Shown here piece after piece: positions 19,117 to 40,257 of a stretch of DNA of 64,000 nt. Each line of letters starts with the position of its first letter. The stretch's first letter is position 1. Source of the stretch: Spirochaetia bacterium (GTDB lineage Bacteria > Spirochaetota > Spirochaetia > UBA9216); the NCBI GenBank assembly GCA_963677925.2, contig CAXXYH010000004.1, positions 1,120,001 through 1,184,000 on the forward strand, written 5' to 3'. A model generated the notes under the pieces. That model was not told the origin of the DNA, made no database searches, and saw nothing but the letters and a program-made list of their open reading frames with translations. The translations under genes were made by a program, and so were the position numbers.

Positions 19117-19190
19117 ATAACAGGTTTATAAGGATTTAAGCTGGAGGGTTATATGAATGATATACCAGTTTATAATTCTGAGTTTATATG
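19105..19190 (+). promoter_or_regulatory. Putative attI-like primary recombination site
   Basis: Repeated GTT(T)ATA motifs (gggttattatgaat..gtttataa and gggttatatgaat..gtttataa); the first cassette left end TTATATGCAATGGACCCGAC starts at about 19184. Confidence 0.6.
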
Positions 19191-19265
19191 CAATGGACCC
19201 GACAAGAGGAAGACGCCCGGACCTCCGGCCGACGGGCGAAGAGACATAAAGGTGGGGGATTTTTT

Positions 19266-20735
19266 ATGCAAGATTTATATATAAAATATAATAAGAAAGA
19301 TAATAAAATTGATTTTGGGCAAACAAAAGGCTCAATAATCGAGATTACTATAAAGCCACCTTCAATCGTTAAAGAAACAAAAGAAACAGGCATAACGAGA
19401 ATATCTGCTATTCAAGAAGATTTTGATAATCTAATTTCGGGAAAGAAGATGATTGACGTTAATAAAACGACTCTCGAACATTGTTATATCTTGGATAAAA
19501 AGGATCCTTACCGATTAGCGGCGACAAATTTTATTTTAAAAAATGAAAAGGATATTGAAGAATATAGTGAAATTCCAAAAGAAAATGATGCTGGTATATA
19601 TAAAAACTATGTAAAAGCATTTTTAGAAGAATTTACAAGATGTACGAAACACATTCCGTTTGCTGAAAAAATTAAAGTCTATCCTTTACCATTGTTGACT
19701 CCATGTAATGTGGAAGTATTAGTAGGTAAAGATGGTGTGTGCTTTATTTTCTCATCAGAAAGTAGACCTGAAAAAGTAAGTGTTTCCTTAGATATAAATA
19801 AAATAATAGAGGAACTTCTTCTGCCTCATCCTACTAATAGAAGATATTCATCATATGGACCTAATACTATTTTTAATTTTATCTGCTCAGATGAGAATTT
19901 TATACATGTGGTAGGGGATGGGAATGCGTTTTTAGATTCTATGCTAGGGAATCCAGTATTTTTGATTTTTGAAAAATCGTTTCATGGTTATTATTCCAAT
20001 ATGAATTTTATAAGAAATTATCCTGATACGGGACTTCAAGTTAAAAAGAAAGTTGAATATTGTGAAATATTTGGTAATAACCATATCTCTAACTTTTCAC
20101 TTGAAAACGCAAGGAGTAGAGCTAGGATAGTTGCGTATAAATCAATTTTGAGTAGTGTTACAGGAAATGTTAATAAAGTAGAAGAACTTAAAAATGTCTT
20201 GATAGAATTGAAAAACAAAATAAACAATGATGTCGGTGAAATAGAAATTGAGAAATTTATTGATTCAAATAAATGGATTTTAGAGAAAGGGATAGGGTGT
20301 CAAAAATATTTTTCACAAATTTCGATACCGAAAGATTTATTATATGATGCTGATGGTGGAATTAAACCTGATAAATATATGATGAATAATGACGGATATT
20401 GTGATATTTTAGATTTAAAAAAACCATCAGCCAAACTAATTGTAATAAAGAATAACCGCAGTCATCAATCTAGTTCTTTAACCGAAGCGGAGGCACAAAT
20501 TGATAAATATATTGATTTCTCTCGTGAACCAAAGGTTAGAGATTATTTATTAACGCTTAATATAAAAATTACGAAACCTGATGGAATTGTATTGATTGGG
20601 AGAACCCCGAAGGAATATTTAAAAGAATGGATTGATATAAAAAAGAGATTACAAATAAAAGTATATACTTATGATGATTTAGTTAATAATTTGGATAATT
20701 TAATTGATTGGATAGATAAGATTCTTACAATTTGA
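19266..20735 (+). CDS. Cassette 1: Shedu (SduA/DUF4263)-like anti-phage nuclease
   Basis: C-terminal EKFIDSNKWIL...KPD...ILDLKKP...LTEAEAQ...PDGIVLIGR...VYTYDDL; RBS ggtggggg before ATG 19266. Confidence 0.75.
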   Translation: MQDLYIKYNKKDNKIDFGQTKGSIIEITIKPPSIVKETKETGITRISAIQEDFDNLISGKKMIDVNKTTLEHCYILDKKDPYRLAATNFILKNEKDIEEYSEIPKENDAGIYKNYVKAFLEEFTRCTKHIPFAEKIKVYPLPLLTPCNVEVLVGKDGVCFIFSSESRPEKVSVSLDINKIIEELLLPHPTNRRYSSYGPNTIFNFICSDENFIHVVGDGNAFLDSMLGNPVFLIFEKSFHGYYSNMNFIRNYPDTGLQVKKKVEYCEIFGNNHISNFSLENARSRARIVAYKSILSSVTGNVNKVEELKNVLIELKNKINNDVGEIEIEKFIDSNKWILEKGIGCQKYFSQISIPKDLLYDADGGIKPDKYMMNNDGYCDILDLKKPSAKLIVIKNNRSHQSSSLTEAEAQIDKYIDFSREPKVRDYLLTLNIKITKPDGIVLIGRTPKEYLKEWIDIKKRLQIKVYTYDDLVNNLDNLIDWIDKILTI

Positions 20736-20788
20736 ATTAAGAATCCAGACCTAACTCCGTTGAACGGTCTGGATGTCGGGTCCAAAGC

Positions 20789-20882
20789 ATAAAACAGGGG
20801 CTATGTGTATCGTCGCTATGCGCTCCTCGGGCTGCGCCACATACGGCTACGCCGTACGTCACATAACACCGGGACGTTATGA
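20789..20882 (+). repeat. attC-like site 1
   Basis: ataaaac-aggggctatgtg...cacataacacc-gggac-gttatga. Confidence 0.88.
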
Positions 20883-20993
20883 GCAATAAGCCCGACAAGT
20901 AAAAGACGCCCGGACCTCCGGCCGACGGGCAAAGAGAGACAGTGTGATAAAATATTATACTAAAAAAGTAAATATAGAATTAAGGGTTTTCAT

Positions 20994-21587
20994 ATGAAAA
21001 AAATAATATGTGTTCTAATCCTTTACATATTATCTATTTTTAGTTGTGTTACAACAGAAACTGTAAATATCAAGAAAGATAGTATGGAAAAGAGTGATTC
21101 TGTCTCTAAAGAAGAATTCAAAATTAGCATAAAAGAATTTGATGATATTTCAAAATATAAAAAGCTTATAAATTTATATGCATTTAAATATAGTGATGAG
21201 AGCAATACAGAATTTCGAGTTTTTACAGGTAGATGTTCAGCTTTTGTCAGGGACAATGGATATTCATCAATATTGCTGAACAATTCTGATGAGAGAGAAA
21301 TAATAAATAGTTATGAAGGTGATTATGAAAAAATTGCTATTATAAATGTCCATACAGTTGATTTAGATAAAGAAAATGGGAAAATTATAATAATCATGTT
21401 TGGAATAAATGATGATGATAAAGAAAAAATATTGTATGTACCTTTTTGGATTGCTACAGCAGAAGGTAAAAGTGTTGAGATTTTGAAATTAAAAAGTAGA
21501 GAAGAAGTTGGAAAATACATGATAGATTGTTTTTTTAATAATATGGAAATTTCTAATGAGTTGATTTATACATTAAGTGGAAATTAG
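20994..21587 (+). CDS. Cassette 2: hypothetical lipoprotein
   Basis: MKK + hydrophobic core + IFSC lipobox. Confidence 0.8.
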   Translation: MKKIICVLILYILSIFSCVTTETVNIKKDSMEKSDSVSKEEFKISIKEFDDISKYKKLINLYAFKYSDESNTEFRVFTGRCSAFVRDNGYSSILLNNSDEREIINSYEGDYEKIAIINVHTVDLDKENGKIIIIMFGINDDDKEKILYVPFWIATAEGKSVEILKLKSREEVGKYMIDCFFNNMEISNELIYTLSGN

Positions 21588-21660
21588 ATTATTCATAACA
21601 ATGAAGGATAAAGAATCCAGCCCTAACTCCGTTGGACGGTCTGGATGTCGGGCTTAAAGC

Positions 21661-21755
21661 TCATAACAGGGGCTATGTGCTTCGTCGCTATACGCTCCTC
21701 GGGCTGCGCCACATACGGCATTCGCCGTACGTCACATAACCCCGGGACGTTATAG
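21661..21755 (+). repeat. attC-like site 2
   Basis: tcataac...cccgggac-gttatag. Confidence 0.9.
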
Positions 21756-21848
21756 CGCAATGAGCCTGACAAGATGAAAATCGCCCGGACCTCCGGCCGA
21801 CGGGCGAAGATATATATATGCTAAGTATCCAAAAAAGGTGATATGTAA

Positions 21849-22385
21849 ATGAATTATCAAACAGTCTATGATATTTCTAAATCTTCTTATAATTGGGTAT
21901 TCCCCTTTTTAGGAATACTTATAACCATTTTATTAATAATTTTTACTAAAGTGGTAAGAAGAAACTTGAAAGTTTTAAATAGGATAGAGGCAGAAAAAGA
22001 AAAAAAGGAAATTTTCTATAATTTTAATAATCCATATGTGAGTAATATGTTGAGACGATTACCCATGGTTTTCACGATATTGGCTTCTATAGCGACCGTT
22101 TTTATAACTTATGGATCTATAAATTATTATGTGAAATTAAATGAAGTGATTCAAAATCAAGAGTATTCAGTTGTTGAAGATAAAATAAAAATTATTAATA
22201 AGTTTGAAACAAATAGAATTCAAAATTTCAAAGTTGGAAAATTTATTTTTAATGTTGCGGATATAAACTCCATCAGAATCTCATTTTGGAAATCTGGAAC
22301 ATATGAAGATTTTTTAGTTGAAGGTCAAGATGTTAAAGTTTATTTTTATGGAAAGTATATTTTGCGTGTTGATTTAATGAAATGA
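21849..22385 (+). CDS. Cassette 3: hypothetical two-TM membrane protein
   Basis: Two hydrophobic segments; RBS aggtga. Confidence 0.75.
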   Translation: MNYQTVYDISKSSYNWVFPFLGILITILLIIFTKVVRRNLKVLNRIEAEKEKKEIFYNFNNPYVSNMLRRLPMVFTILASIATVFITYGSINYYVKLNEVIQNQEYSVVEDKIKIINKFETNRIQNFKVGKFIFNVADINSIRISFWKSGTYEDFLVEGQDVKVYFYGKYILRVDLMK

Positions 22386-22520
22386 ATATGCATGCAAAAT
22401 TTCTATTCATATAGTTACTATTAAAGAGTAATTACTAAGAAATTTGAGTATTATTTTAGCATATAAGAGTGGGAATCCAGACCTAACTCCGTTGAACGGT
22501 CTGGATGTCAGGCTCAAAGC

Positions 22521-22843
22521 GCATAACAGGGGCTATATGCTCGTCGCTAAACGCTCCTTGGGCTTCGCCACATTTTTATTTTCTGAATTGGGTAATTGGG
22601 TACAGCATTTAACAAGAGATTTGGAGTAGTCAAAACCTTTGTCACAGTTCTGGCTAAAGACACTCCGCGCTGATCGCGCTACGTTCCAGAACTGCGCCAA
22701 GCCTCGGAGACTCGGCCGGTTTCGCTACTCAAATCGTCGTTAAATGCACAGAAATGTGCCAATAGTTTATGATTGAGAAATACGGGTAAGTGGTGGTAAA
22801 ATTAAGAAAAATAAAAACGTCATATAACCCCGGGGCGTTATGA
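22521..22843 (+). repeat. Long attC-like site 3 with a nested attC
   Basis: Same outer stem as the short sites; contains gcatttaac (22605)...gttaaatgc (22747). Confidence 0.88.
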
Positions 22844-22960
22844 GCAATGAGCCCAACAAGAGGAAGACGCCCGGACCTCCGGCCGACGGGCGAAGAATCG
22901 ATTGGTTTGATTTTTATAACTGATAAGTGATGTCAAAAGTAATATAAAGAATAGGTTGGT

Positions 22961-23680
22961 ATGGATATACAAGAGGATAAAGTAAATAATAATTTGATTG
23001 CGCAAGATTTAGAATTAGGAGTAATAACTATGGGGGCAGCAACGATTGATCAAAGACATAATTTTGCATACCAACATATGCACTCAGCTATTGAATTTAG
23101 GAATCAAACTTATAAAATTGAAGAAGATAATAAAAACGAAAAATTTGGATATTTTTTTGAGTTGATTAGAACATATGTAAGTGGTTGTATATTCTTTTCA
23201 GTGGCTTCAGTAGAGGCAAATATAAATGAAATTATATGTGATATTATTGAAAATAAAATAAAATTAGGTGAGTTTGAAAAAAAGAAAATTATTGAAATAA
23301 ATGATAGAGAGTCTACTCTTAAAAAATACGAAATCATATTAAACGAGGTAATGAAGTTTGAATTATCAAAAGATAAAGAAATTTATCAAAATATGAAAAT
23401 TTTAATAGATGTAAGAAATGCTTTTACTCATTTCAAACCAGAATGGGAATCAAATCAGAAATGGCATGATAAAATTGGAAGAAAATTATCTGGGAAAATC
23501 AAGATGACTCCATACATAGAAGATAGCAGTCCGATTTTTCCGATGCGTTGCATGACTTATGATTTTTGTTGTTGGTCCACAATATCAAGTTATAATTTTA
23601 TGAAAGAAATTTTTAGTTTACTATCAATAAGAAATAAATTTGAGAAATTTGAAGAAACAATTTATAAGGGTAGTAATTAA
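22961..23680 (+). CDS. Cassette 4: putative HEPN-domain protein
   Basis: Helical protein with SVEANIN and an RNAFTH (Rx4H) motif. Confidence 0.6.
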   Translation: MDIQEDKVNNNLIAQDLELGVITMGAATIDQRHNFAYQHMHSAIEFRNQTYKIEEDNKNEKFGYFFELIRTYVSGCIFFSVASVEANINEIICDIIENKIKLGEFEKKKIIEINDRESTLKKYEIILNEVMKFELSKDKEIYQNMKILIDVRNAFTHFKPEWESNQKWHDKIGRKLSGKIKMTPYIEDSSPIFPMRCMTYDFCCWSTISSYNFMKEIFSLLSIRNKFEKFEETIYKGSN

Positions 23681-23761
23681 TATAATTATATAGCTTATTT
23701 TTATAGTGTAAGGGAATCCAGACCTATCTCCGTCGAACGGTCTGGATGTTGGGCTCAAAGC

Positions 23762-24085
23762 GCATAACAGGGGCTATATGCATCGTCGCTAAATGCTCCT
23801 CGGGCTGCGCCACATTTTTATTTTGTAATTGGGTTAATAGGGTATAGCATTTAACAAAAGATTTGGAGTAGTCACAACCTTTGTCACAGTTCTGGCTAAA
23901 GACACTCCGCGCTGATCGCGCTGCGTTCCAGAACTGCGCCAAGCCTCGGTGACTCGGCCGGTTTCGCTACTCAAATCGTCGTTAAATGCACAGACATGTG
24001 CCAATAGTTTATGATTGTGAAATACGGGTAAGTGGTGGTAAAATTAAGAAAAATAAAAACGTCATATAACCCCGGGACGTTAGCT
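23762..24085 (+). repeat. Long attC-like site 4 with a nested attC
   Basis: Near-identical to site 3; inner element at 23847-23989. Confidence 0.88.
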
Positions 24086-24213
24086 GCAATTTCGGTCATG
24101 GTAATTATCTAATTAGTAGGAGCCCGCCTTCCATGGCGGTCAGGATAGAAGAAGTAAATATCTACATTTTGATACATTTTTTAAATAAACAATCTAAATA
24201 ATAAGGAATTTTA

Positions 24214-24933
24214 ATGAAAAAAAAGAGAATTATATCAATACTTCTATGTCTTTTTTCAACATCGGTCTATGCAGAAACAAATGATGTTCCAAATGGAATG
24301 ATCATAGAATCATCTTCTAATAATGGACAATCAATTCTTGTAAGAAAACATGACCAAGTTTTGACGATTGATTACTCTGCGCACGATTTTCAAATGGTTA
24401 TTTATGATTCTCCAATAAATAAAGAAAAAATTGGGGAATTGAAAAAGAAGGATGTAATACGAATAAAAGAAATACATATTATTGATGATAACGAAATGTG
24501 GTTTAAAATTTCTGCTTCTGAGAAAAATGGTTATATCTTATTTAAAATTGGTGAAAATATTTATGATTTCTACGCTGATAATTTATGGCAACCAGTAGAA
24601 ACTATTCAGAGTGGGGAGCAAACTTGGCATACATTAAAATGTAATCAGAGTTTTATTGTTTATACTAATTTGTTTATTCGTGATAAACCTGGATTTGGTG
24701 GGGAAAAAATAGGAATGATAACTGCAAATAATAGCAATTCCGAAATAGTAAGCACTTCAGAAGTTACTGTTGAAAAAGAGAAGATTGATGGAAAAACTGA
24801 ACGCTGGGCTAAAATTGAATATTAAGGACTAATTGGTTGGGTATTTGCAGGTTATTTGAGTTATGAAAGAGGTGGGCCTAGGTTTAATACTCCCGAATCA
24901 ATGATAGCAATGAGTCTTGGCGCAGGTATTTAA
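24214..24933 (+). pseudogene. Cassette 5: secreted SH3b-domain protein with an in-frame stop
   Basis: Signal peptide; IRDKPG...WAKIEY*GLIGWVFAGYL reads through TAA 24823-24825 to a stop at 24933. Confidence 0.8.
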
Positions 24934-25040
24934 ATTTTTAGATATTATTATAATTCGTGGAAATTTAAATTGTTTTACAGAGTCAAATACATCCTTGTAT
25001 TTGACAGAATTAATCACTTGACAACCATGACGGAAACAGC

Positions 25041-25367
25041 AGCTAACAGGGGTTATTTGCTTCGTCGCTATGTGCTCCTCGGGCTTCGCAACATTTTTAT
25101 TTTTGTAAATGGACGATATGACAAAAGGCATTTAACAATGATTTGCAGCAGTCCTGGCTATTTTCACGGTTTTAGCTAAAGACGTTCCGCGCTGATCGCG
25201 CTGCACTCTAAAACCGAGCCAATGCCGTAGGAGACTACGGCCGCCAGGCAGCTGAAATCGGCGTTAAATGCACAGACATGTGCCAATAGTTTATGATTGA
25301 GAAATACGGGTAAGTGGTGGTAAAATTAAGAAAAATAAAAACGTCATATAACCCCGGGACGTTATAC
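25041..25367 (+). repeat. Long attC-like site 5 with a nested attC
   Basis: agctaac...gttatac; inner element at 25128-25271. Confidence 0.88.
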
Positions 25368-25399
25368 GACATATCACATATCTAAAATGGAGTAAAAAA

Positions 25400-25807
25400 G
25401 TGAGTGAAAGACCGTTTAAAGAAAAATCGAATGAACCTACAAACGAAAAAATAAATGAAGCACTCGGTGCTGTTTCCGAATATTATCATGATTTAAATAA
25501 ATTGACAAAAGATTTTCAACACACCTGGAATCATTCAAAATCCAGTGGCTGGATGGAAAAAGTAGAAGATAATAAAAAAGCTCTTTACTATTTTATTCCG
25601 TTGAATGATTCCTTTATTCTGAGTATGGCTATTAGAGAAAATGAAAAAGAATATTTTGAGTCTAAAGAGGGTATGGTAAAATATAAAGATATAGTATCAA
25701 CCGCCAGAAAATATTCGGAAGGATATAATATAAAATTTGAGGTAGAAAACTCTGAGCAATACGATTTTTCAAAAGAGTTTGTAAAAGAAATAATTGCTCA
25801 AAGGTAG
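25400..25807 (+). CDS. Cassette 6: DUF3788-like protein
   Basis: PTNEKINEALG...W...GW...KKALYYFIP pattern; GTG start with RBS ggag. Confidence 0.7.
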   Translation: MSERPFKEKSNEPTNEKINEALGAVSEYYHDLNKLTKDFQHTWNHSKSSGWMEKVEDNKKALYYFIPLNDSFILSMAIRENEKEYFESKEGMVKYKDIVSTARKYSEGYNIKFEVENSEQYDFSKEFVKEIIAQR

Positions 25808-25821
25808 ATATGTGAAACGTC

Positions 25822-25915
25822 GTATAACAGGGGCTATGTGCTTCGTCGCTATACGCTCCTCGGGCTGCGCCACATACGGCTTCGCCGTACGTCACATAAC
25901 CCCGGAACGTTATCT
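25822..25915 (+). repeat. attC-like site 6
   Basis: gtataac...cccggaac-gttatct. Confidence 0.9.
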
Positions 25916-25977
25916 GACATACCCAGAAAAGTTCCGACCCTCACCATCCGTGGTTCGGGTTTTAAGAAGAAGAGAAA

Positions 25978-26724
25978 ATGAATATTGAATGTATTATTAA
26001 AGAAGCTGGAAGAAAGTTAAAGAACGAATATTTGGAAACGCCTCTTGTCTCAGTTAAAGAAAGATATGATTTAGTAAGTCAAAGTGATAAGAGGATTGAA
26101 GAGGAATTAATAAAAGAGATTATAAAGTTGTTTCCAAATGATGATATTTATTCAGAAGAAATTGGAGAAATTAAGAATGAAGGAAGATCAAGATGGATTA
26201 TAGATCCAATTGATGGAACCGCTGATTTTATTTTTGGAGTCCCGTACTTTGCAATATCAATCGCAAAAGAAGTAGATGGGATAATTGAAGAAGGTTATGT
26301 ATATAATCCAATATCGGAAGAGTTTTATAAATCAATTAAAAATGAAAGAAAATCCTACCTCAATGATGTAGAAATAAAAGTTTCAGAAAAAAATGTAATT
26401 GAAGAATCTTTAATTGCTTTCGGATTTAGTGCCAATGAAGAGAATATGAATTTATATCTTTCTGAATGGTCTAATCTCATGAATGATTGTAGAAAGGCAA
26501 TGCCATTAATCACTCCTGCATTAACAATTTGTAATGTCGCAAGAGGAAGGATCGACGCTTACATAGATTTTGGTTCAAGTATGGAAGGAAAAGCTGCTGC
26601 CAGTATGATATTGCTGAATGCAGGAGGAAGTATTCGGAATTATTATAGAGAGGGTTTTGATCATAGAGAAAAAGGACATATATGTAGCAATGGAAGATTG
26701 GATCTTGAAGAAGGAAGAGGTTAG
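25978..26724 (+). CDS. Cassette 7: inositol monophosphatase family protein
   Basis: SEE and WIIDPIDGT motifs; VARGRIDAY. Confidence 0.9.
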   Translation: MNIECIIKEAGRKLKNEYLETPLVSVKERYDLVSQSDKRIEEELIKEIIKLFPNDDIYSEEIGEIKNEGRSRWIIDPIDGTADFIFGVPYFAISIAKEVDGIIEEGYVYNPISEEFYKSIKNERKSYLNDVEIKVSEKNVIEESLIAFGFSANEENMNLYLSEWSNLMNDCRKAMPLITPALTICNVARGRIDAYIDFGSSMEGKAAASMILLNAGGSIRNYYREGFDHREKGHICSNGRLDLEEGRG

Positions 26725-26783
26725 GAAGAAAAATAAGTACATCCCTGTACTTATTTTAGAGGTATAATAAAAATGGGTACGTC

Positions 26784-26875
26784 AGATAACAAGGGTTACA
26801 CGCTCCGGCCATACGGCCTGCGGGCTGAGCCACATTCGGCTACACCGAACGTCGTGTAACCCTGGAACGTTATCT
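26784..26875 (+). repeat. attC-like site 7
   Basis: agataac-aagggttacac...gtgtaaccct-ggaac-gttatct. Confidence 0.88.
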
Positions 26876-26990
26876 GCAATGTTTCCGCCAAGAGGAAGAT
26901 GCCCGGACCTCCGGCCGACGGGCGAAGAAGAATGAGGTTTGAATATACTAATTAGTGAGATAAGATAAAATAAAAAAATGAGGTAGCATT

Positions 26991-32157: not shown

Positions 32158-32176
32158 TACAATAAAGAGGTGTATT

Positions 32177-32425
32177 ATGTTAGTTTCAGTGGTTCCTATA
32201 GGCAATTCAAAAGGAATACGAATTCCGAAGAGCATTTTGCAACAGTTAAATATTGAAGAAAAAGTTGAATTAGAAGTGCATAATACAGAAATACTGATTA
32301 GACCAATAAAGAAAAAGCCAAGGGAAGGATGGTCCGAAGAGTTTATGAAGATGCATCAAAATGGGGATGATTCATTACTTTTAGACAATTTGACTGAACA
32401 GGGTGATTTTGAATGGGAATGGTAA
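32177..32425 (+). CDS. mazE: Cassette 14: AbrB/MazE antitoxin
   Basis: IGNSKGIRIPK motif; RBS gaggtg. Confidence 0.9.
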   Translation: MLVSVVPIGNSKGIRIPKSILQQLNIEEKVELEVHNTEILIRPIKKKPREGWSEEFMKMHQNGDDSLLLDNLTEQGDFEWEW

Positions 32426-32742
32426 TTCATCAATATGAGGTATATTTAATAAACTTAGATCCAACAGTTGGCCATGAAATAAAAAAGACAAGACCTTGTT
32501 TAGTGATTTCACCAAATGAAATGAATGAAACAATCCAGACTATTATTATCGCTCCAATGACAACAAAATCACATACATATCCTACTCGTGTAGCTGTTAA
32601 GTTTCAAAATAAAGATGGATGGATTGTTTTAGATCAATTAAGAACTGTTGATAGGAAGAGATTAATTAAAAAGATTGGTAAAATAAATAGAAAAGAAGTA
32701 GATCTCGTCAAGAATGTGCTACAGGAAATGTTAATAGATTAA
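32413..32742 (+). CDS. mazF: Cassette 14: PemK/MazF toxin
   Basis: LDPTVGHEIKKTRPCLVIS...DQLRTVD. Confidence 0.94.
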   Translation: MGMVIHQYEVYLINLDPTVGHEIKKTRPCLVISPNEMNETIQTIIIAPMTTKSHTYPTRVAVKFQNKDGWIVLDQLRTVDRKRLIKKIGKINRKEVDLVKNVLQEMLID

Positions 32743-32791
32743 AGCCAAACAACATCCATGTTGCTTGGCTTTGAAGAAGGTTCGTGACATC

Positions 32792-32882
32792 GTCTAACAA
32801 GGGTTATTCGCTCGTCACTACGCTCCTCGGGCTGCGCCACATACGGCTTCGCCGTACGTCACATAACCCCGGAACGTTATCC
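32792..32882 (+). repeat. attC-like site 14
   Basis: gtctaac...gttatcc. Confidence 0.88.
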
Positions 32883-32973
32883 GAAATATTGTGGCTTGAA
32901 GAAACTCGCCTTCCTTGGCTCGTTAGAAAGAATTAAGATTGATAAAAATTAAAAAGTGTTGTACAATGTACAT

Positions 32974-33366
32974 ATGAGCATATTGGTAGATGCAAACATA
33001 TATTTAGCAGTAATTCTCGATGAGCCGGAAAAAAGCAAAATTATTGGATTAACTCAGGAAGATGATCTGATATCACCGGTTGTTTTACCTTTCGAAGTGG
33101 GAAACGCTCTATCTGCAATGTATAAAAGAAATAGATTAGATAAAAGTCAAATAATTGATTGTTATTCAATATTTCAGAAAATACCAGTGCGTTTGATTGA
33201 TGTTAATATTCAAAACTCATTAGTAATAGCAGCAGATTATGGAATATATGCCTACGATGCGTATTATTTGGAGATAGCAAAACGATACAAATGCAGTTTG
33301 TTGAGTTTGGATAATAGAATGAAAGAAGTGGCTAATGATTTAGGAGTTCACTTATTGGAGGTCTGA
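32974..33366 (+). CDS. vapC: Cassette 15: PIN/VapC toxin (toxin-first order)
   Basis: ILVDAN, EVGNAL, YDAYYL, SLD acidic PIN residues. Confidence 0.9.
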   Translation: MSILVDANIYLAVILDEPEKSKIIGLTQEDDLISPVVLPFEVGNALSAMYKRNRLDKSQIIDCYSIFQKIPVRLIDVNIQNSLVIAADYGIYAYDAYYLEIAKRYKCSLLSLDNRMKEVANDLGVHLLEV

Positions 33367-33591
33367 ATGAGAGTTTTTAATTATTCAGAAGCAAGGCAGA
33401 ATTTCGCTTCAATATTGAATATGGCAGCAGAAGAAGATGTCATAATAGCAAAGAAGGATGGAAGCAGATTTAAGATTGTACCGCTTACTAAAAATGAAAG
33501 CAAATCACCATTTGATGTTCCAGGAATTAAAAGTAAAGTTACAACCAAAGAAATTCTTGATGTAATTAGAGAAACTCGAGAGTTATCGTAG
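33367..33591 (+). CDS. Cassette 15: Phd-like antitoxin
   Basis: FNYSEARQNFASILN...VIIAKKDG. Confidence 0.85.
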   Translation: MRVFNYSEARQNFASILNMAAEEDVIIAKKDGSRFKIVPLTKNESKSPFDVPGIKSKVTTKEILDVIRETRELS

Positions 33592-33643
33592 AGAAGAAAG
33601 CCGTAATTACGTCCTGTAATTACGGCTTAAGCCACAATACTTC

Positions 33644-33725
33644 AGATAACAAGGGTTACACGCTCCGGCCATTCGGCCTACGCCCAAATTGCTGCGCAAC
33701 TTCGCTTAACCCTGGAACGTTAGCT
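33644..33725 (+). repeat. attC-like site 15
   Basis: agataac-aagggtta...taaccct-ggaac-gttagct. Confidence 0.88.
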
Positions 33726-33846
33726 GAAATGCAACCGCTAAGAGAAAGACGCCCGGACCTCCGGTCGACGGGCGATCATGAAGAGAAAGAATATAAAAAT
33801 TGACATGATATATATCAAGGTATATACTTAAAATAGAGGTGGGTAT

Positions 33847-34077
33847 ATGCAAACGGCAAAAATTTTTCAAAATGGAAGATCTCAAGCTATTAGGATACCG
33901 AAAGAATATCAGTTTAAAGGTGATGAAGTATACATTCAAAAGCATGGCGATGCTGTACTGTTGATTCCGCATGAAAAAGCTTGGGAAGTCTTTATGGAAG
34001 GCATAAATGAGTTCACAGAAGATTTTATGAAAGATGGAAGAGAACAAGGCGAAGTACAAGAGAGAGAAGCATTTTAA
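33847..34077 (+). CDS. vapB: Cassette 16: VapB antitoxin
   Basis: AKIFQNGRSQAIRIPKEY; promoter TTGACA-17-TATACT upstream. Confidence 0.94.
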   Translation: MQTAKIFQNGRSQAIRIPKEYQFKGDEVYIQKHGDAVLLIPHEKAWEVFMEGINEFTEDFMKDGREQGEVQEREAF

Positions 34078-34475
34078 TGTATTTACTTGATACTAATATT
34101 TGTATATTCGCGATTAAACGTAAGCCTTCAAAAGTATTTGAATTAATAAAAGAAAGATCTAAAGAAGGAATATATATTTCATCATTAACAGTAGCAGAGT
34201 TGGAATTTGGTGTTCAAAATAGTGAACGAGAAGAGCAAAACAGAATAGCTCTTCTAAAATTTCTTTCTGTATTCAATATTTTAAATTTTGATGATTCAGA
34301 CGCAATAGATTATGGGAGGATGAAAGTAGATTTAAGAAAGAATGGTAATGTAATTGGACCAATTGATATGTTATTGGCTGCGCAAGCTTTGAATAAAGAT
34401 ATGATATTTGTAACCAATAATGTAAAAGAATTTGAAAGAGTAAAAGGTTTAAGAATAGAAGATTGGAGTGTTTAG
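34077..34475 (+). CDS. vapC: Cassette 16: VapC toxin
   Basis: YLLDTNICI, AELEFG, IGPIDMLLAAQA, VTNNVKEFERV. Confidence 0.95.
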   Translation: MYLLDTNICIFAIKRKPSKVFELIKERSKEGIYISSLTVAELEFGVQNSEREEQNRIALLKFLSVFNILNFDDSDAIDYGRMKVDLRKNGNVIGPIDMLLAAQALNKDMIFVTNNVKEFERVKGLRIEDWSV

Positions 34476-34529
34476 AAGAATCCAGCCCTAACTCCGTCGA
34501 ACGGTCTGGATGAGGAGCGGTGGCACTAC

Positions 34530-34623
34530 AGCTAACAGGGACTATGTGCTCGTCGCTTTATGCTCCTCGGCCTTCGCCACATACGGCTTACGCCGTACGT
34601 CACATAACCCCGGGACGTTATGT
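34530..34623 (+). repeat. attC-like site 16
   Basis: agctaac...gttatgt. Confidence 0.88.
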
Positions 34624-34686
34624 TCAATGCCCGGCTTAAGAGCTTAATAGTCCTCGGCAATCCGTGGCCTCGGGAAGGAAGAAGAA

Positions 34687-35676
34687 ATGAAAAGTAATGC
34701 AGAAAAAACAATACAATCTCTTAGAAAGATTAATGATTTCCCTTTTTATATCGCAAAATATTATGGTGACTATAAAATTACTGAATATAAGAATGGAGCG
34801 ATAAAAAGTCCAAATGATATAGTTCCTTTTTTTAAAAATCTTTTTTCAGAATTAGGACAACCAACAGAGTTAAGTTTTCCAAAGCCTCCTGAAATCAATT
34901 TAGGTTGTAGTGCTTTTTTCTGCCGCGATAAAAAAAACTCTGCTATCATTGGTAAAAACAATGACTGGAAAAGAGATCCAATTCTTTTACTCAAGACAAC
35001 ACCAGATGAAGGCTATACATCATTTTCTATGGTTAATTTGAGTTTCTGTGATTTATTTCAATTAGGTTCTTTTGATCACAATCTATTATTATCACCTTAT
35101 GTTCCACTCGATGGTATGAATGAGATTGGGCTTGTTGTAACAACATTGGCTGTTCATGAAGGTTCAGAATATCCGCTAAAATCAAATCATTTATCAGTTG
35201 GTGATTTTAATTTAGTAAGAATTATCCTTGATACATGTGCCAATATAGATGAAGCAATCGTTATAATTGATCAGTATAATATAATGCAAACAGGTCCGCT
35301 TCCAATACATCTTCTTATCGCTGATAAAAGTGACTCTTGTATAGTTGAATTCTTTGATGGAAAGAAACATATAAAAAGAGATCAAGATTTAAACTACTTA
35401 ACAAATTTTCTTAAACTGAAAACTTCTGATTATGAGAATCAAAGGAATCTTTGTAATCGGTATCAGACTATAGAAAGACGGTTTAAGCAAGATAAAATTA
35501 TCATTAAAATTCATGAAGCAAAGAAAATTTTTTCAGAAGTATCAGTTTGTACTGGAAATTTTCAAATTCCAAGTACCATCTATTCAACAATATATTGTCC
35601 GAATGATTTAAGTCTGAAAATAAAGATAGGTGATGAATCAAAATATTACTCGTTATCGCTACAGGAGAGTAAATGA
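34687..35676 (+). CDS. Cassette 17: Ntn hydrolase (C45/choloylglycine hydrolase-like)
   Basis: GCSAF nucleophile, GKNNDW, DGMNEIGL, HLLIAD, LTNF. Confidence 0.85.
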   Translation: MKSNAEKTIQSLRKINDFPFYIAKYYGDYKITEYKNGAIKSPNDIVPFFKNLFSELGQPTELSFPKPPEINLGCSAFFCRDKKNSAIIGKNNDWKRDPILLLKTTPDEGYTSFSMVNLSFCDLFQLGSFDHNLLLSPYVPLDGMNEIGLVVTTLAVHEGSEYPLKSNHLSVGDFNLVRIILDTCANIDEAIVIIDQYNIMQTGPLPIHLLIADKSDSCIVEFFDGKKHIKRDQDLNYLTNFLKLKTSDYENQRNLCNRYQTIERRFKQDKIIIKIHEAKKIFSEVSVCTGNFQIPSTIYSTIYCPNDLSLKIKIGDESKYYSLSLQESK

Positions 35677-36239
35677 CAGATATTGAAATCCTGGGGCTAA
35701 ATAATAGCTTCTCTTTTGAAGAATTAAAGAGAGCTTTCAGACAAAAATCAAAACAATTTCATCCTGATAAAAATCAGGATAACTTGAATAGCCATCTTGC
35801 GATGATTCAATTGAATCAAGCATATTCAAATCTTCAGAAGAAAATCAAAGAAAAGCCTGTTTTGAATAATCGGGACCTATCCATAGATACTGCATATTCA
35901 ATATATAAAGATGGAATCTCAAAGTTTCAGAGTATCCATCCTTCCAAATGGAAATCATATTCTATCGATGGACTTTTTGATCCAAGTGCAATTAACACTC
36001 ATTCTGAAACACCTTTAATTTTACAATCTTTAATAACACTGATGGCAGAAGCTTATCATCGTTTTTCAACTGTAGTGAACGAACATGAAAATAGTTCTTG
36101 GTATTCAGATTCAATAACGAAAATGAAAGAAATTGAGAAAATGACACAACGGTATATCAAGATAAAGGAATCATATGAAATAGAAATGAATGATAGAAAG
36201 CGGATCAGAAAATCTGTCCATGGACTTTCTGAAAATTGA
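35673..36239 (+). CDS. Cassette 17: J-domain protein
   Basis: ILGL...LKRAFRQKSKQFHPDKN...LNQAY. Confidence 0.88.
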   Translation: MTDIEILGLNNSFSFEELKRAFRQKSKQFHPDKNQDNLNSHLAMIQLNQAYSNLQKKIKEKPVLNNRDLSIDTAYSIYKDGISKFQSIHPSKWKSYSIDGLFDPSAINTHSETPLILQSLITLMAEAYHRFSTVVNEHENSSWYSDSITKMKEIEKMTQRYIKIKESYEIEMNDRKRIRKSVHGLSEN

Positions 36240-36261
36240 AACCAAACCTGCCGGGCAATAA

Positions 36262-36408
36262 ACATAACAGCGAATATGCGGTTGCGCTTCGCTCCACCCA
36301 AATTGCTTCTTTGATAAAATCTGAAAAAAGTATGTTATACTTTTTCCAGATTTTATCAAGCCCCGCAAGGGGGCTGAAGCAACTTCGCATATTCGCGAAA
36401 CGTTATAT
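36262..36408 (+). repeat. attC-like site 17 (extended)
   Basis: acataac-agcgaatatgcg...cgcatattcgc-gaaac-gttatat. Confidence 0.87.
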
Positions 36409-36557
36409 GATATAATTGAGCAGGCGGCAAATAGACACTCGCCGTCCTGGCTTGTGTGTAAGAGAATATAAATGATTTAACAATTAATAAATGATTAAAA
36501 ATTTCAAATAGAATATAAAATCATTTAGGTTTATTTTTAGGAGAAGAAAGAAGAAGA

Positions 36558-37043
36558 ATGAAAAAATATCATTTAAATAATCGTCCAAACCGTGAATTAA
36601 CAAATGAGATTGATATTACAGCAATTTTAGAAAGTGGGAAATATGCTGTAATTGCTATGTGTCGTGATAATGAACCATATATTGTTACTTTAAGTTATGG
36701 TTATGATTCATTAAAAAAATGTTTATATTTTCATTGTTCACCTATTGGGCTAAAGCTCGATTTTATAAAATATAATGCGAAAGTTTGTGCGACAGTAATT
36801 GAAGATGGTGGATATATAGTTGATGAATGTGGTCATAATTATAGAACAGCAGTTTTCTGGGGTAATATAAATATAGTTTTAGATTTAGATGAAAAAAAGC
36901 ATGGAATGAAAATGATACTAAATCATCTTGAGGAAAATCCATCAATAATTAAGGATAAGTTATTAAAGTCAGGCGACTTTTATTCAAAGATGGAAATATT
37001 AAGGCTTGATATTTCTCAGATTCATGGGAAAGCAGGAAGATGA
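36558..37043 (+). CDS. Cassette 18: pyridoxamine 5'-phosphate oxidase/Nim-like flavin-binding protein
   Basis: PYIVTLSYGY, LYFHC, GLKL, KVC motifs. Confidence 0.85.
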   Translation: MKKYHLNNRPNRELTNEIDITAILESGKYAVIAMCRDNEPYIVTLSYGYDSLKKCLYFHCSPIGLKLDFIKYNAKVCATVIEDGGYIVDECGHNYRTAVFWGNINIVLDLDEKKHGMKMILNHLEENPSIIKDKLLKSGDFYSKMEILRLDISQIHGKAGR

Positions 37044-37116
37044 TTTTAAGAGAAGTCGAAAGGCCCAAAAAACGTCCATATATTTGGGGGGGTAAATGAT
37101 AGTGCTCAAGTACGTC

Positions 37117-37211
37117 ATATAACAGGGGCTATGTGCTTCATCGCTGTGCGCTCCTCGGGCTGCGCCACATACGGCTTGCGCCGTACGTCACATATCCCCG
37201 TGAAGTTAGAT
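37117..37211 (+). repeat. attC-like site 18
   Basis: atataac...gttagat; slightly degenerate. Confidence 0.82.
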
Positions 37212-37229
37212 TCAATATGTCAATAAACA

Positions 37230-37880
37230 ATGAAAAAGGAGATTCCTATGACACAATTTGGTAAACCAACAGGGAAAATGGGCAAAATACTGGCAAAAGG
37301 ATTTGCTTTTGGTCATAAGGATTTTTATAAGAACACAGCATTCATTGCTGGATTAACAGAATCTGATGAATTGCTGGAAATCGGGTTTGGTTCCGGAATG
37401 TTTATTAATAAATATGCAAAGCATATAAAACATATTGCCGGATTAGATATTTCACCGGATATGGTTGAATTAGCAAAAGAGATTAACAGTAAATTGCTTG
37501 ATGAAAAAAAGCTAGAACTTATAGAAGGAAACATTTTATCATTACCTTGGAATGATAATTCTTTTTCAGTCATCATTAGTATAGAATCATTTTTCTTTTG
37601 GGAAAATGTCGAAAAAGCCGTGTTAGAAATTTATCGTGTTCTAAAACCGGGAGGAAGGATTGTTATAGAAATGGCATTTAATTTGGAAGACGGTCAAGAT
37701 CATACAAAAGATATAAAGAAAATTGGATTTCAACTTTATGAGGAGAAGAATATCCGGAATCTTTTGAACGAATCAGGTTTTATTGATGTTTCTTTCAATT
37801 ATTATAAAGCATTTTGGATTCCTATTAAGGGATATATTGTCACAAAAGGTATGATCTTTAAGGCTTGTAAGCCCCATTGA
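37230..37880 (+). CDS. Cassette 19: class I SAM-dependent methyltransferase
   Basis: LLEIGFGSG, GLDIS, RVLKPGG. Confidence 0.9.
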   Translation: MKKEIPMTQFGKPTGKMGKILAKGFAFGHKDFYKNTAFIAGLTESDELLEIGFGSGMFINKYAKHIKHIAGLDISPDMVELAKEINSKLLDEKKLELIEGNILSLPWNDNSFSVIISIESFFFWENVEKAVLEIYRVLKPGGRIVIEMAFNLEDGQDHTKDIKKIGFQLYEEKNIRNLLNESGFIDVSFNYYKAFWIPIKGYIVTKGMIFKACKPH

Positions 37881-37888
37881 CATACTAC

Positions 37889-37967
37889 AGCTAACAGGGG
37901 CTATACGCTCCTCGGGCTGCGCCACATTCGGCTGCGCCGAACGGCACATAATCCCGAAACGTTATGT
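37889..37967 (+). repeat. attC-like site 19 (internally deleted)
   Basis: agctaac-aggggctatacgctcc lacks one arm; ends gttatgt. Confidence 0.8.
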
Positions 37968-37992
37968 GTCATCTGTTGAAATATCTGGAGGT

Positions 37993-38472
37993 ATGATGAA
38001 TATAAATAAGGGAGTTGAATTAAGAAAAGAAGGCAAACTAATAGAATCAAATAACTTCTTTATAAAACTTGCAATTGAATACCCTAATGATGCCATAGTT
38101 CAGTATCAATGTGCATGGAGCTTTGATGTTTTAGAGAAAGAGACAGAAGCGATCTATTATTATGAGAAAGCAATAGAACTTGGTCTGCAAGATAATGATC
38201 TGAAAGAAGCATTGCTAGGTTTGGGTAGTACTTACCGGTCAATTGGTGAATATGAGAAATCAAAACAGACATTTGAGAAGGGAATCTCATTATTCAATGA
38301 TAATTCCTTAAAGGTTTTTTATGCGATGACCTTATACAATTATGGAGAATATTCCAGGTCTATGGATTTATTACTCAATATTATTGCGAACACAACCCAA
38401 GATAAATCTATATTAACATATAAAAAGGCAATAAAGTTTTATTCAGGGAGATTGGATGAGGTATTTAACTAA
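37993..38472 (+). CDS. Cassette 20: TPR protein
   Basis: EAIYYYEKAIELG...LGLGSTYRSIGEY; RBS ggagg. Confidence 0.88.
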   Translation: MMNINKGVELRKEGKLIESNNFFIKLAIEYPNDAIVQYQCAWSFDVLEKETEAIYYYEKAIELGLQDNDLKEALLGLGSTYRSIGEYEKSKQTFEKGISLFNDNSLKVFYAMTLYNYGEYSRSMDLLLNIIANTTQDKSILTYKKAIKFYSGRLDEVFN

Positions 38473-38484
38473 GGAAAGAATGAC

Positions 38485-38560
38485 ACATAACAGCGAATAT
38501 ACGGTTCCGCTTTGATTCACCCAAACTGGCCGTTGACCAGCTTCGCATATTCGCGGGATG
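38485..38560 (+). repeat. attC-like site 20 with its GTT crossover deleted
   Basis: acataac-agcgaatat...atattcgc-ggga is followed directly by tggcaataagcac. Confidence 0.8.
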
Positions 38561-38629
38561 GCAATAAGCACTATATTTATTGAGAAAAGCTGAATCTGCC
38601 ATCCATGGCAGATAAAAGGATTTAAATGC

Positions 38630-39454
38630 ATGATTTATGAATTGGACAAAGCAGATTATTATAGGGCCGAGAATCTTTTTACCAAGTTGAAAACAAACAC
38701 AGCAATTGAGTCAATTTTTAACCATAAAAACGAAGCTCGTCTGTTTGTTGATAATCCAAGTAAACCGAAAAGCATCTTCATTCTTAATTCATGGGCTTAC
38801 TACTATCTGGCTGGTGAATCCGAAAATGAAAAATTTAATTCTTCATTAGTTAAGTTTCTTGAAAATGATTTTTTTCCAGAATGTCTCAAAACAAATTCTA
38901 ATACAGTTTTCGCATTTTATCCCGATAGTAACCAGTGGTGTAAAAAATCTGAAGAAATATTTTCTCATTTGAATATTGAAAAATCGGGAAAAACCTATTT
39001 TAACTATGATGAAAAACGTTTCAATAAAAACTGGAGAGAAAATATTCCTGAAGGTTTCAGTGTAAAAAGAATCAGCTCGGAAATTATTAATTCAATTGAA
39101 AATAATGAAGAATTTGTAAATTACATAAAATTTGCCTGGACAACAACTGATCAGTATTTTGACAAAGGATTGGGATACTGTGCTATTGATGCAAATGATT
39201 TTGCAACAATTTGTATTTCTGTTTTTGCTTCTGAAAATGAGCGAGAAGTGGGGATTAAAACATTTCCTGACTTTCAAAGAAAGGGATTGGCATATGTTAC
39301 AGCCTGTGCCTATATTGAAGAATGTTTAAAAAATAATTTTGTTCCTGTCTGGTCATGTTTTAGCGAAAATAAAGTATCAATAAGATTAGCAGAAAAACTT
39401 GGCTACAAAATCGAAGCCTCGCATCCGATTTATTTTGCGAAGATTGGTGATTGA
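38630..39454 (+). CDS. Cassette 21: GNAT acetyltransferase
   Basis: EVGIKTFPDFQRKGLA...PVWSC...NKVSIRLAEKLGY. Confidence 0.9.
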   Translation: MIYELDKADYYRAENLFTKLKTNTAIESIFNHKNEARLFVDNPSKPKSIFILNSWAYYYLAGESENEKFNSSLVKFLENDFFPECLKTNSNTVFAFYPDSNQWCKKSEEIFSHLNIEKSGKTYFNYDEKRFNKNWRENIPEGFSVKRISSEIINSIENNEEFVNYIKFAWTTTDQYFDKGLGYCAIDANDFATICISVFASENEREVGIKTFPDFQRKGLAYVTACAYIEECLKNNFVPVWSCFSENKVSIRLAEKLGYKIEASHPIYFAKIGD

Positions 39455-39514
39455 AGAAAACGTATCGCTGGGCATCCATGCCTCTCTACAGGCTTGCATT
39501 CCTGTGCTTGCTGC

Positions 39515-39663
39515 CTATAACAGAGAATATACACTGCGGCTCGCCTTGGCATTCTGCAAATCGCCTTTGACAAATACCTGATGAAATGTGATACAATTTC
39601 CCATATATTTATTACCCCTATAGGGGTGCCAGGCGACTTTCGTATATTCGAGGAACGTTAGGC
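39515..39663 (+). repeat. attC-like site 21 (extended)
   Basis: ctataac-agagaatatac...gtatattcga-ggaac-gttaggc. Confidence 0.8.
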
Positions 39664-39682
39664 CATAATTTATGGAGAAAAA

Positions 39683-40141
39683 ATGGATGTACATATAAGT
39701 AAATTAAACTCCAATACGGATGTTCCTATGGATTTATTGCTACTTGCCGATCCATCGGAAGAATTAGTTAAAAGTTATCTTAAAAAGGGAACATGCTATA
39801 TCGCTGAATTTGATGAAGAAACAGTTGGCGTTATTCTTATTGTGGAGACAAAACCACATACTGTTGAAGTTATGAATCTTGCGGTTAAAGAAGAACTGCA
39901 TAATAACGGTATAGGCAAAAAACTCCTCTTGCACGTTATTGAAGAAATAAAAAAAAGTGATACAAAAACAATTGAAATCGGAACTGGAAATCCCGGAGTA
40001 GTACAAATGTTATTGTATCAAAAGTGTGGTTTCCGTATCGTAGGGATAGATTTTGATTTTTTTAGAAGGACGCATCCTGAACCGATATATGAGAATGGAA
40101 TAGAATGCCGTGATATGATAAGAATGAGAATTGAGTTATAG
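39683..40141 (+). CDS. Cassette 22: GNAT acetyltransferase
   Basis: LLLLADPS, HNNGIGK, LYQKCGFR. Confidence 0.92.
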   Translation: MDVHISKLNSNTDVPMDLLLLADPSEELVKSYLKKGTCYIAEFDEETVGVILIVETKPHTVEVMNLAVKEELHNNGIGKKLLLHVIEEIKKSDTKTIEIGTGNPGVVQMLLYQKCGFRIVGIDFDFFRRTHPEPIYENGIECRDMIRMRIEL

Positions 40142-40175
40142 TATGGAGGGTCTTAACGGTTTTATCCATAAACAG

Positions 40176-40257
40176 CCCTAACAGCGAATATGCGGTTCTA
40201 CATGGCTTCAACCAAATTAGCCTGCGGCCAACTTCGCATATTCGCGGGACGTAATCT
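40176..40257 (+). repeat. attC-like site 22 (last site; GTT mutated to GTA)
   Basis: ccctaac-agcgaatatgcg...cgcatattcgc-gggac-gtaatct. Confidence 0.8.

Follow-up and report, generated by a model that had tools for sequence, protein, structure and literature searches.

A cassette array with doubled own-end stems beside a Xer-like recombinase in a Spirochaetia genome

A 64,000-nucleotide stretch from the genome of a Spirochaetia bacterium (GenBank assembly GCA_963677925.2, contig CAXXYH010000004.1, positions 1,120,001 to 1,184,000; here called the window and numbered from its first letter) carries a one-directional array of 22 gene cassettes on the + strand (19182-40250), in which AT-rich genes lie between GC-rich recombination sites. 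Each of the 22 begins with the reverse complement of the bases that precede its own R'' box, and the two arms so formed pair with each other about twice as far as is usual for integron cassettes. The arms covary from cassette to cassette, they are specific to one site type, and in relatives of the bacterium that site type is linked to a tyrosine recombinase of Xer type, whose gene ends shortly before an attI-like junction at the head of the array. These are integron-like cassettes with a doubled own-end stem, and the platform that carries them departs from the canonical integron in two of its defining features.

Site form and cassette boundaries

The sites of the array have the form ..ATAAC-AGGGGCTATGTG...CACATAACCCCGGGAC-GTTAT..., which is the R''-L''...L'-R' layout of integron attC sites, and the integron boxes R'' (RYYYAAC) and R' (GTTRRRY), with crossover at G|TT, are found at all 22; we refer to this form as type A. 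With 22 attC sites, where at least two suffice, and the nearest canonical integron integrase (IntI) on another contig, the array has the make-up of an attC-site cluster that has no integron integrase (CALIN). A generic attC finder recovers arrays beside canonical IntI, and among type A sites it returned none with its terminal-pair rule and nine with a relaxed rule. Since it is nearly blind to type A, those sites were delimited by hand or by motif and control arrays by the finder, with the same arm metric applied to both; in the window, the G of R' (GTT) and the C of R'' (AAC) were placed by hand for each of the 22 cassettes.

The position of the boundary follows from two comparisons, one between the copies of cassette 14 in the window and in a second array of the same genome, on contig C3, and the other between the attI-like junctions of this genome and of a relative from the same genus. 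From GTTAG, through their own attC and as far as the GTTAT that follows, the copies of cassette 14 share their sequence; two bases ahead of the G they differ. Together, the comparisons place the boundary between -1 and +5 of GTTAK, and position 5 (T or G) matches the R'' of the cassette's own site. These observations put the boundary within GTTA, consistent with a crossover at G|TT. Given a boundary within GTTA, the outer 3' arm would be cut from its attC at integration and become the 5' end of the cassette.

Each cassette pairs with its own far end

The original prediction held that the left end of each cassette is complementary to its own right end beyond the 7-bp core, and the five arm pairs that it quoted were all recovered in place. 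Each quoted left arm occurs singly on the + strand, and its partner, which departs from it by 1-2 mismatches, stands 440-770 bp further downstream on the - strand, at a chance expectation of 0.00 (100 shuffles); a search with the left arm of cassette 2 gave a third match, which is the related left arm of cassette 4. To score pairing across the array, each left arm was aligned, anchored, with the reverse complement of each right arm over positions 8-32 only, that is, beyond the 7-bp core. Own partners scored a mean of 9.05 against 1.55 (standard deviation 1.58) for non-own partners, and the own partner ranked top in 22/22 cases, with two ties that correspond to the duplicated cassettes 10 and 11; none of 20000 partner permutations reached the observed mean. 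The arms that flank one and the same attC in the array (right arm n and left arm n+1) are unpaired, with a mean score of 2.5.

Including GTTAK, the arms have a median length of 21 nt (range 12-26) and a median of 19 Watson-Crick pairs (range 12-23). At least eight of the ten positions from 12 to 21 are paired in 17/22 own pairings versus 9/462 non-own pairings. Short arms (12-17 nt) occur in cassettes 10, 11 and 20, and cassette 21 is without GTTATA.

We pooled the arms of the window with those from the arrays of four relatives and from the second array of the same genome (G000), which gave 61 intervals and 46 unique arm pairs. The 38 pairs that scored at least 11 were kept, and these come from five arrays in G000, G002, G005 and G010; the eight dropped were mostly intervals with a missed site or short arms. 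Across the 38 unique pairs, positions 12-21 are 94-100% Watson-Crick paired with every base occurring in those columns, in agreement with the earlier claim that arm sequence varies by cassette and pairing is kept. A mismatch about 10 bp from the GTT had also been noted, and it proves sharper than described: position 11 is non-Watson-Crick in 36/38 pairs (28 A.C and 8 A.A, top strand) and position 10 in 11/38, with a left-arm consensus of GTTAK-NNN-M-A-A-T. On the bottom strand, the A.C of position 11 becomes a G.T wobble (28/38). The related cassettes 2, 3 and 4 differ from one another by changes on both arms.

Canonical cassettes pair less far

The complementarity of canonical attC ends had been taken to cover only the 7-bp R boxes, which is too low. 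According to the available text of Bouvier et al. (2009, PMC2727003), self-pairing in most cassettes runs past the 7-nt boxes to 9-11 consecutive nt, and our own controls agree. In the array beside the canonical IntI of G000, on C3, 13/20 cassettes have 9-10 contiguous complementary nt; the other intervals (7/20) are long and probably hide sites. At least eight pairs at positions 12-21 were found in 0/20 cassettes of this array versus 17/22 of type A, and in five arrays beside canonical IntI from other genera of the phylum (53 cassettes) pairing covers 3-9 contiguous nt, with at most six pairs at positions 12-21. Pairing as long as that of type A, which if common in canonical cassettes would have made the present arms ordinary, is thus absent from the 20 + 53 control cassettes.

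Set against a canonical limit of 7 nt, or up to 9-11 nt, own-end pairing here has a median of 21 nt. The first 9-10 bp are ordinary, and what is unusual is that pairing resumes after the fixed non-pair for about 10 bp more. The novelty is a known feature doubled, together with a fixed mismatch, and not the first appearance of own-end pairing. A literature search, over such text as was available, found neither own-end pairing above 11 nt nor a cassette platform of Xer type, which is not proof of absence in print.

In three canonical IntI arrays from other genera (L152, L153 and L160), left-end positions 9-11 read GAC or GAT and are directly followed by a small GC-rich hairpin, and own-end pairing ends at 7-9 nt. 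A similar GAC-AT is present in the type A cassettes 6, 7 and 10.

The neighbouring recombinase and the attI-like junction

The protein encoded just upstream of the array (P0001) passes the NCBIfam XerA-type model NF040815 with 232.5 bits (cut-off 220). On the integron integrase model TIGR02249 it reaches 194 bits (cut-off 265), matching model positions 2-180 and 236-315 and leaving 181-235 unmatched. In a BLASTP alignment with the IntI of its own genome (30% identity), gaps of 31 and 8 residues fall where IntI has its extra domain, and P0001 does not have this IntI-specific addition. When 20 homologues are aligned, residues R212, K237/K240, H303, R306, H329 and Y338 do not vary; we take them to be the tyrosine-recombinase catalytic set, which would then be complete in P0001. 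The protein also has about 80 extra N-terminal residues (window 18043-18285), with a weak match to HARP (PF07443) of 22.3 bits, rising to 25.6 in one homologue (cut-off 25); nothing was found for them among PDB sequences, and Atlas scores were below 0.9. If this HARP-like resemblance in sequence is real, branched or forked DNA where the stem begins might be a binding target of the N-terminus.

Behind the recombinase gene, G000 and its congener G002 are homologous up to ...ccagtttataattctgaG (...ttctgaG|TT); the TT is common to both, and different first cassettes follow. This attI-like junction lies 66 nt past the stop codon of P0001.

Of ten further genomes of the order, six have an orthologue of P0001, at 53-96% identity; a sample of 400 other genomes from the phylum yielded none (E<=1e-85), and those found belong to one family. 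Type A sites lie downstream of the orthologue in 4/4 relatives with flanks fetched (G002, G008, G010 and G005), and the linkage of gene and array is kept down to 53% identity. Long own-end arms with the position-11 non-pair are present in G002, G010 and G005, and the 11-kb piece of G008 has the sites but no complete cassette interval. BLAST matches of type A attC fall in the array beside the Xer-like orthologue in 12/15 cases for G000, 20/20 for G002, 5/5 for G010 and 1/1 for G005, and 30/34 matches of the second site type described below (type B) fall in the IntI array of G000. Further afield, a query with the 20-protein alignment found distant relatives in genome contigs that, among the matches listed (80 loci), have at most 43% identity; an 11-mer repeat screen of these 80 loci found few repeat clusters, which says little about arrays in distant relatives. 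With P0001 as a single-protein query, metagenome contigs gave 16 loci, none above 40% identity.

A second integron and nested sites

The genome also has a canonical IntI (C3:128526-129455), which scores 383 bits on TIGR02249 (cut-off 265), and such an enzyme is present in 8/11 genomes of the order. In G000, G002 and G010, the sites that come after it are of type B, as in the canonical array on C3. The two systems are interlocked in sequence: four sites of the window are composite, with a complete type B attC in the loop of a type A attC (Table 1), and on C3 the nesting is reversed, with type A cassettes inside type B cassettes whose ends are halves of the composite site. Nested site systems of this kind would let cassettes pass between both arrays. 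The Xer-like neighbour in place of an integron integrase, the second integron with another attC type and the nested sites all go beyond what the original prediction had described.

Inner stem and predicted folds

Inside the R boxes, the sites have imperfect inverted repeats L''/L' around a variable loop, with covariation in 15 aligned short sites. L'' and L' pair better within one attC than with the neighbouring site (mean 8.64 versus 6.19; of 21 cases, 15 favour the own partner, 4 are ties and 2 favour the neighbour). It had been proposed that the outer stem forms only in the excised circle or in a looped-out single-stranded cassette, and the geometry holds, with the arms at opposite ends of each cassette. 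Because the inner stem covaries within the attC of the same cassette, the circle is favoured over looping-out; because L'' and L' covary in cis, inner and outer stems would form one helix only in the circularised cassette.

The in-silico circularisation and folding that had been suggested as a check was carried out with DNA parameters for the 17/22 cassettes with an attC shorter than 150 nt. Circular junctions are predicted to be more stable than the same sites in array context on both strands, with -34.1 versus -25.3 kcal/mol for the bottom strand and -28.9 versus -22.2 kcal/mol for the top strand. Minimum-free-energy predictions for four sites of each type give the type A bottom strand a 4-nt bulge on one side but not a single isolated extrahelical base, and the type B bottom strand two single bulged bases and a small spacer.

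How the cassettes may recombine, and the alternatives

The account towards which we lean, with rather more belief than doubt, is that the two arms form the outer portion of an attC palindrome of unusual length, whose crossover is set about 21 bp in from the stem's base, and that the joined circle is the integration substrate of the Xer-type enzyme. A cassette would be excised at G|TT. At integration, the outer 3' arm (TTAK plus about 16 nt) would be split off and become the first bases of the cassette, with the outer 5' arm staying before R'' at its far end; since both arms belong to the same mobile unit, they would travel and covary together. In the circle, the abutting ends would complete a palindrome of about 130-140 nt, and one strand, probably the bottom, would fold into a nearly continuous helix made of an outer stem of about 10 bp, a fixed spot at positions 10-11 that departs from Watson-Crick pairing, 9-10 bp of R stem, and a 4-nt bulge with the L stem. 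The R arm of this helix would be a full duplex half-site, with the marked spot one turn from the crossover, and the Xer-type enzyme would recombine the folded strand with the attI-like site just downstream of its gene. As P0001 is without the insertion by which integron integrases grip extrahelical bases, we would expect it to require a hairpin resembling a complete duplex half-site. The outer stem would be unable to form in the array, and excision would on this scheme be disfavoured relative to integration; the stem presumably promotes folding or recognition, and so biases the reaction towards the integration of circles.

A wider proposal, to which we give somewhat less than an even chance, is that a Xer-type recombinase without the integron domain runs a cassette platform of its own, using a duplex-mimicking attC that each cassette completes with its own ends, and that this is a living counterpart of a stage before the extra domain, interlocked with a canonical integron through nested sites.

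Several points count against this account. Which strand folds and which enzyme acts is something that we infer from the DNA sequence, and the folds are minimum-free-energy predictions. Even in array context, the predicted hairpins are stable (-25 kcal/mol), which means that folding as such does not require the outer stem. Wobble pairs outside position 11 have no strand bias (8 bottom versus 6 top), and three to five cassettes have short or poor arms. Type A cassettes also sit inside the IntI array on C3, and every genome with a clear Xer-like orthologue has a canonical IntI as well (in G005 split over two frames), so that co-occurrence cannot separate the two enzymes. Finally, a single bacterial family is the source of all type A arrays, which hence cannot count as independent samples.

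An alternative view is that the structure is as described but is served by the canonical IntI on C3, the array being a satellite CALIN, the Xer-like neighbour incidental or devoted to another task, and the outer stem merely stabilising. A bona fide IntI in G000 (383 bits) and in 8/11 genomes of the order fits this view, as do the type A cassettes within the IntI array and the statement, in the available text of Cury et al. (2016, PMC4889954), that widely differing attC sites reportedly serve as substrates for integron integrases. We nevertheless consider it unlikely. A conserved junction, 66 nt past the Xer-like gene, marks the start of the array, where the first cassettes differ in two species, and the gene-array linkage is kept to 53% identity; the type A cassettes examined on C3 are never directly joined to a type B site and sit between halves of composite sites; the predicted type A folds are without the extrahelical bases that IntI uses; and G005 keeps type A cassettes with 20-26-nt arms though its IntI is read in two frames. 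Somewhat less probable again is that the arms match ends within the array, by pairing across a single-stranded cassette and looping it out, with a duplex R arm built from R'(n-1) and R''(n) and the arm serving as a cassette-specific address, so that excision would take place between rightly matched neighbouring sites, one cassette at a time. It would account for arms that are cassette-specific and diverse beside flanking modules (purine tract and subterminal hairpins) that are near-identical in cassettes 8, 9, 13 and 16, and for non-own arms that rarely pair (9/462); by our own reasoning, the strand path would also yield the same products as canonical excision. The inner stem that it requires, between L'(n-1) and L''(n), however, pairs less well than the one within a site (6.19 versus 8.64; own better in 15/21), and 0.4-1.7 kb of single strand would have to be closed by a 20-bp stem.

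To two further explanations we give very little credence. The arms could pair in a read-through transcript and mark cassettes for processing or insulation, like the stems that flank rRNAs, and indeed they flank every open reading frame (ORF), subterminal hairpins adjoin them and the array is co-directional with the upstream gene. On the sense strand, however, the fixed mismatch is A.C, and it is a wobble only in antisense (28/38); strong promoter-like sites lie past the left arm (12/12 matches at 32129-32157 and 11/12 at 33800-33828), so that toxin-antitoxin cassettes would make mRNAs of their own that lack it; and a search of Rfam gave no matching family, not even at E<=1. Counted overall, promoter-like sites are no more numerous than in shuffles. 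It is equally hard to credit that the arms have no present function and are a relic of cassette genesis (for example, from one long palindrome) that persists by hitch-hiking, even with all type A arrays coming from one family. Positions 13-21 use all four bases yet are 94-100% paired (38 pairs), and cassettes 2, 3 and 4 have changed on both arms, a pattern that points to selection for pairing; the non-pair that is fixed at position 11 also speaks for constraint.

Relation to known systems

With canonical IntI integrons, the array shares the R''/R' boxes and G|TT boundary, the imperfect L''/L' palindrome with a variable loop, one-directional and mostly single-gene cassettes beside a tyrosine recombinase and an attI-like junction, and a typical cargo of toxin-antitoxin pairs, a Shedu-like protein and acetyltransferases. 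It also shares own-end pairing past the 7-nt boxes, known to 9-11 nt from the text available of PMC2727003. It differs in the median 21-nt own-end pairing with a fixed non-pair at positions 10-11, in the predicted one-sided 4-nt bulge in place of two extrahelical bases, and in a recombinase that is without the IntI insertion, falls below the IntI cut-off and is co-directional with the cassettes.

A mechanistic parallel to the folded site may be sought in phage CTX-phi. In the part of Escudero et al. (2016, PMC4792948) that was available, extrahelical bases and the I2 domain are described as co-evolved, and the CTX-phi hairpin recombined by Xer enzymes as having no extrahelical bases and mimicking duplex DNA. 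The attP(+)/XerCD system likewise uses a Xer-type enzyme without an I2-like domain, and the long, near-perfect stem predicted for the circular type A site would fit duplex mimicry. Unlike that system, which belongs with dif and chromosome dimers, the recombinase here is a dedicated third paralogue with an attI-like site and a cassette array, and the mobile element is a gene cassette, not a phage; the likeness is one of enzyme type and predicted hairpin.

Within the phylum, the reverse integrons of Treponema have, according to the available text of PMC3607928, an integrase that is transcribed towards the cassettes and treated as an integron integrase, and attC sites of 63-68 bp. The phylum and the direction of the recombinase gene are thus shared, so far as that text goes. 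Their enzymes are treated there as integron integrases, however, with 63-68-bp attC sites, and the arrays from other genera compared here pair over only 3-9 nt. By the IntegronFinder definition, as given in the available text of PMC4889954, the present array would be filed as a CALIN, there being no IntI nearby; in contrast to a CALIN, it is accompanied by a conserved recombinase and an attI-like junction, which gives it the look of a whole platform and not of an orphan cluster.

Integron recombination is taken to rest on two co-evolved features, the unpaired bases of the folded attC and the integrase domain that grips them. How the pair of extrahelical bases and gripping domain arose is, in the available text of PMC4792948, an acknowledged chicken-and-egg problem. 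The array joins attC-like sites that seemingly have no extrahelical bases to a recombinase without the gripping domain, with a long cassette-specific stem instead, and with two enzymes and two site types in one genome, the question of origin becomes directly testable. Own-end pairing emerges as a tunable feature, with 7-11 nt in canonical cassettes versus about 21 nt here. Current attC models end at the R boxes, and a platform of this kind would be filed as an orphan cluster.

Cassette contents and other features

The coordinates of the recombinase gene, junction, cassettes and sites are collected in Table 1; attC sites without a row of their own sit between each right arm and the following left arm.

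Table 1. Features of the cassette array, in window positions
Feature	Position	Strand	Left arm / right arm	Pairing	Remarks
Xer-like tyrosine recombinase P0001, 357 aa	18043..19116	+			same strand as cassettes; NF040815, TIGR02249, BLASTP
attI-like region	19117..19183	+			crossover G 19182 | TT; G000 versus G002 comparison
Cassette 1	19182..20795	+	19182-19204 / 20774-20795	20 pairs, 2 mismatches, 1 indel	ORF with SduA_C domain
Cassette 2	20876..21667	+	20876-20897 / 21646-21667	20 pairs, 2 mismatches	
Short type A attC, example	21663..21753	+			R''-L''-loop-L'-R', 91 nt; 15-site alignment, predicted fold
Cassette 3	21749..22527	+	21749-21771 / 22506-22527	20 pairs, 2 mismatches, 1 indel	
Composite type A attC, loop holding an entire type B attC	22523..22841, 23764-24083, 25043-25365, 29159-29477	+			sequence; 315-320 bp
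Cassette 4	22837..23768	+	22837-22858 / 23747-23768	19 pairs, 3 mismatches	
Cassette 5	24079..25047	+	24079-24102 / 25024-25047	21 pairs, 3 mismatches	
Cassette 6	25361..25828	+	25361-25384 / 25805-25828	22 pairs, 2 mismatches	
Cassette 7	25909..26790	+	25909-25925 / 26774-26790	16 pairs, 1 mismatch	
Cassette 8	26869..27644	+	26869-26889 / 27624-27644	19 pairs, 2 mismatches	
Cassette 9	27810..29163	+	27810-27830 / 29143-29163	20 pairs, 1 mismatch	same-armed copy in C3 array
Cassette 10	29473..29875	+	29473-29489 / 29860-29875	15 pairs, 1 mismatch, 1 indel	no ORF
Cassette 11	29950..30351	+	29950-29966 / 30336-30351	15 pairs, 1 mismatch, 1 indel	duplicate of 10
Cassette 12	30426..31100	+	30426-30445 / 31081-31100	19 pairs, 1 mismatch	BrnT/BrnA
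Cassette 13	31182..31989	+	31182-31201 / 31970-31989	18 pairs, 2 mismatches	Phd/ParE
Cassette 14	32069..32798	+	32069-32089 / 32778-32798	19 pairs, 2 mismatches	MazE/MazF; identical cassette in C3 array, other context
Cassette 15	32876..33650	+	32876-32901 / 33626-33650	23 pairs, 2 mismatches, 1 indel	PIN/Phd
Cassette 16	33719..34536	+	33719-33739 / 34516-34536	18 pairs, 3 mismatches	MazE-type antitoxin/PIN
Cassette 17	34617..36268	+	34617-34635 / 36250-36268	17 pairs, 2 mismatches	
Cassette 18	36402..37123	+	36402-36422 / 37103-37123	18 pairs, 3 mismatches	
Cassette 19	37205..37895	+	37205-37224 / 37876-37895	16 pairs, 4 mismatches	
Cassette 20	37961..38491	+	37961-37972 / 38480-38491	12 pairs, 0 mismatches	shortest arms
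Cassette 21	38554..39521	+	38560-38571 / 39504-39515	13 pairs, 4 mismatches, 2 indels	R' box lost, outer arm kept
Cassette 22	39657..40182	+	39657-39681 / 40160-40182	20 pairs, 3 mismatches, 2 indels	next R' (40251) reads GTAAT

The product of the gene region of cassette 1 (19188-20735) contains a Shedu SduA_C domain. Further along, five cassettes in a row (30536-34475) carry the toxin-antitoxin pairs BrnT/BrnA, Phd/ParE, MazE/MazF, PIN/Phd and MazE-type/PIN, and in 4/5 of these, promoter-like sites lie downstream of the left arm. The cassette without an ORF stands as a tandem pair (29473-29949 and 29950-30425) and is present in about 10 copies in the array of G002, from the same genus. Two R' boxes are decayed, one at 38554-38560 without GTTATA and the other at 40251-40255, which reads GTAAT, and downstream of 40251 lies a remnant that resembles cassette 16; at its far end, the array seems to be decaying.

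The possibility that the cassette ends hold a ribozyme or another RNA motif already known is not supported, with no Rfam match at gathering scores in the whole window or at E<=1 in 19000-41000. In the contigs of one sequencing run, many joints fall at repeated attC sites and none could be read as a clean excision or circle junction; nothing is drawn from them.

About 15/22 cassettes also have subterminal hairpins on the + strand, some 20-70 nt inside both ends (for example, 32103-32124/32739-32770 and 20905-20930/21603-21636), which in a circle would stand on either side of the long stem. TCC is present in their loops (ATCCAT, TCCT, CCTCCGG and ACTCCGT), and purine tracts (AAGAGRAAGA and GAAGAG) separate them from the arms; two of them score terminator-like on the - strand. 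A short GAGAGAAA-type purine repeat (27554-27590) lies just before the right-end hairpin of cassette 8, and contigs of the sequencing run break there.

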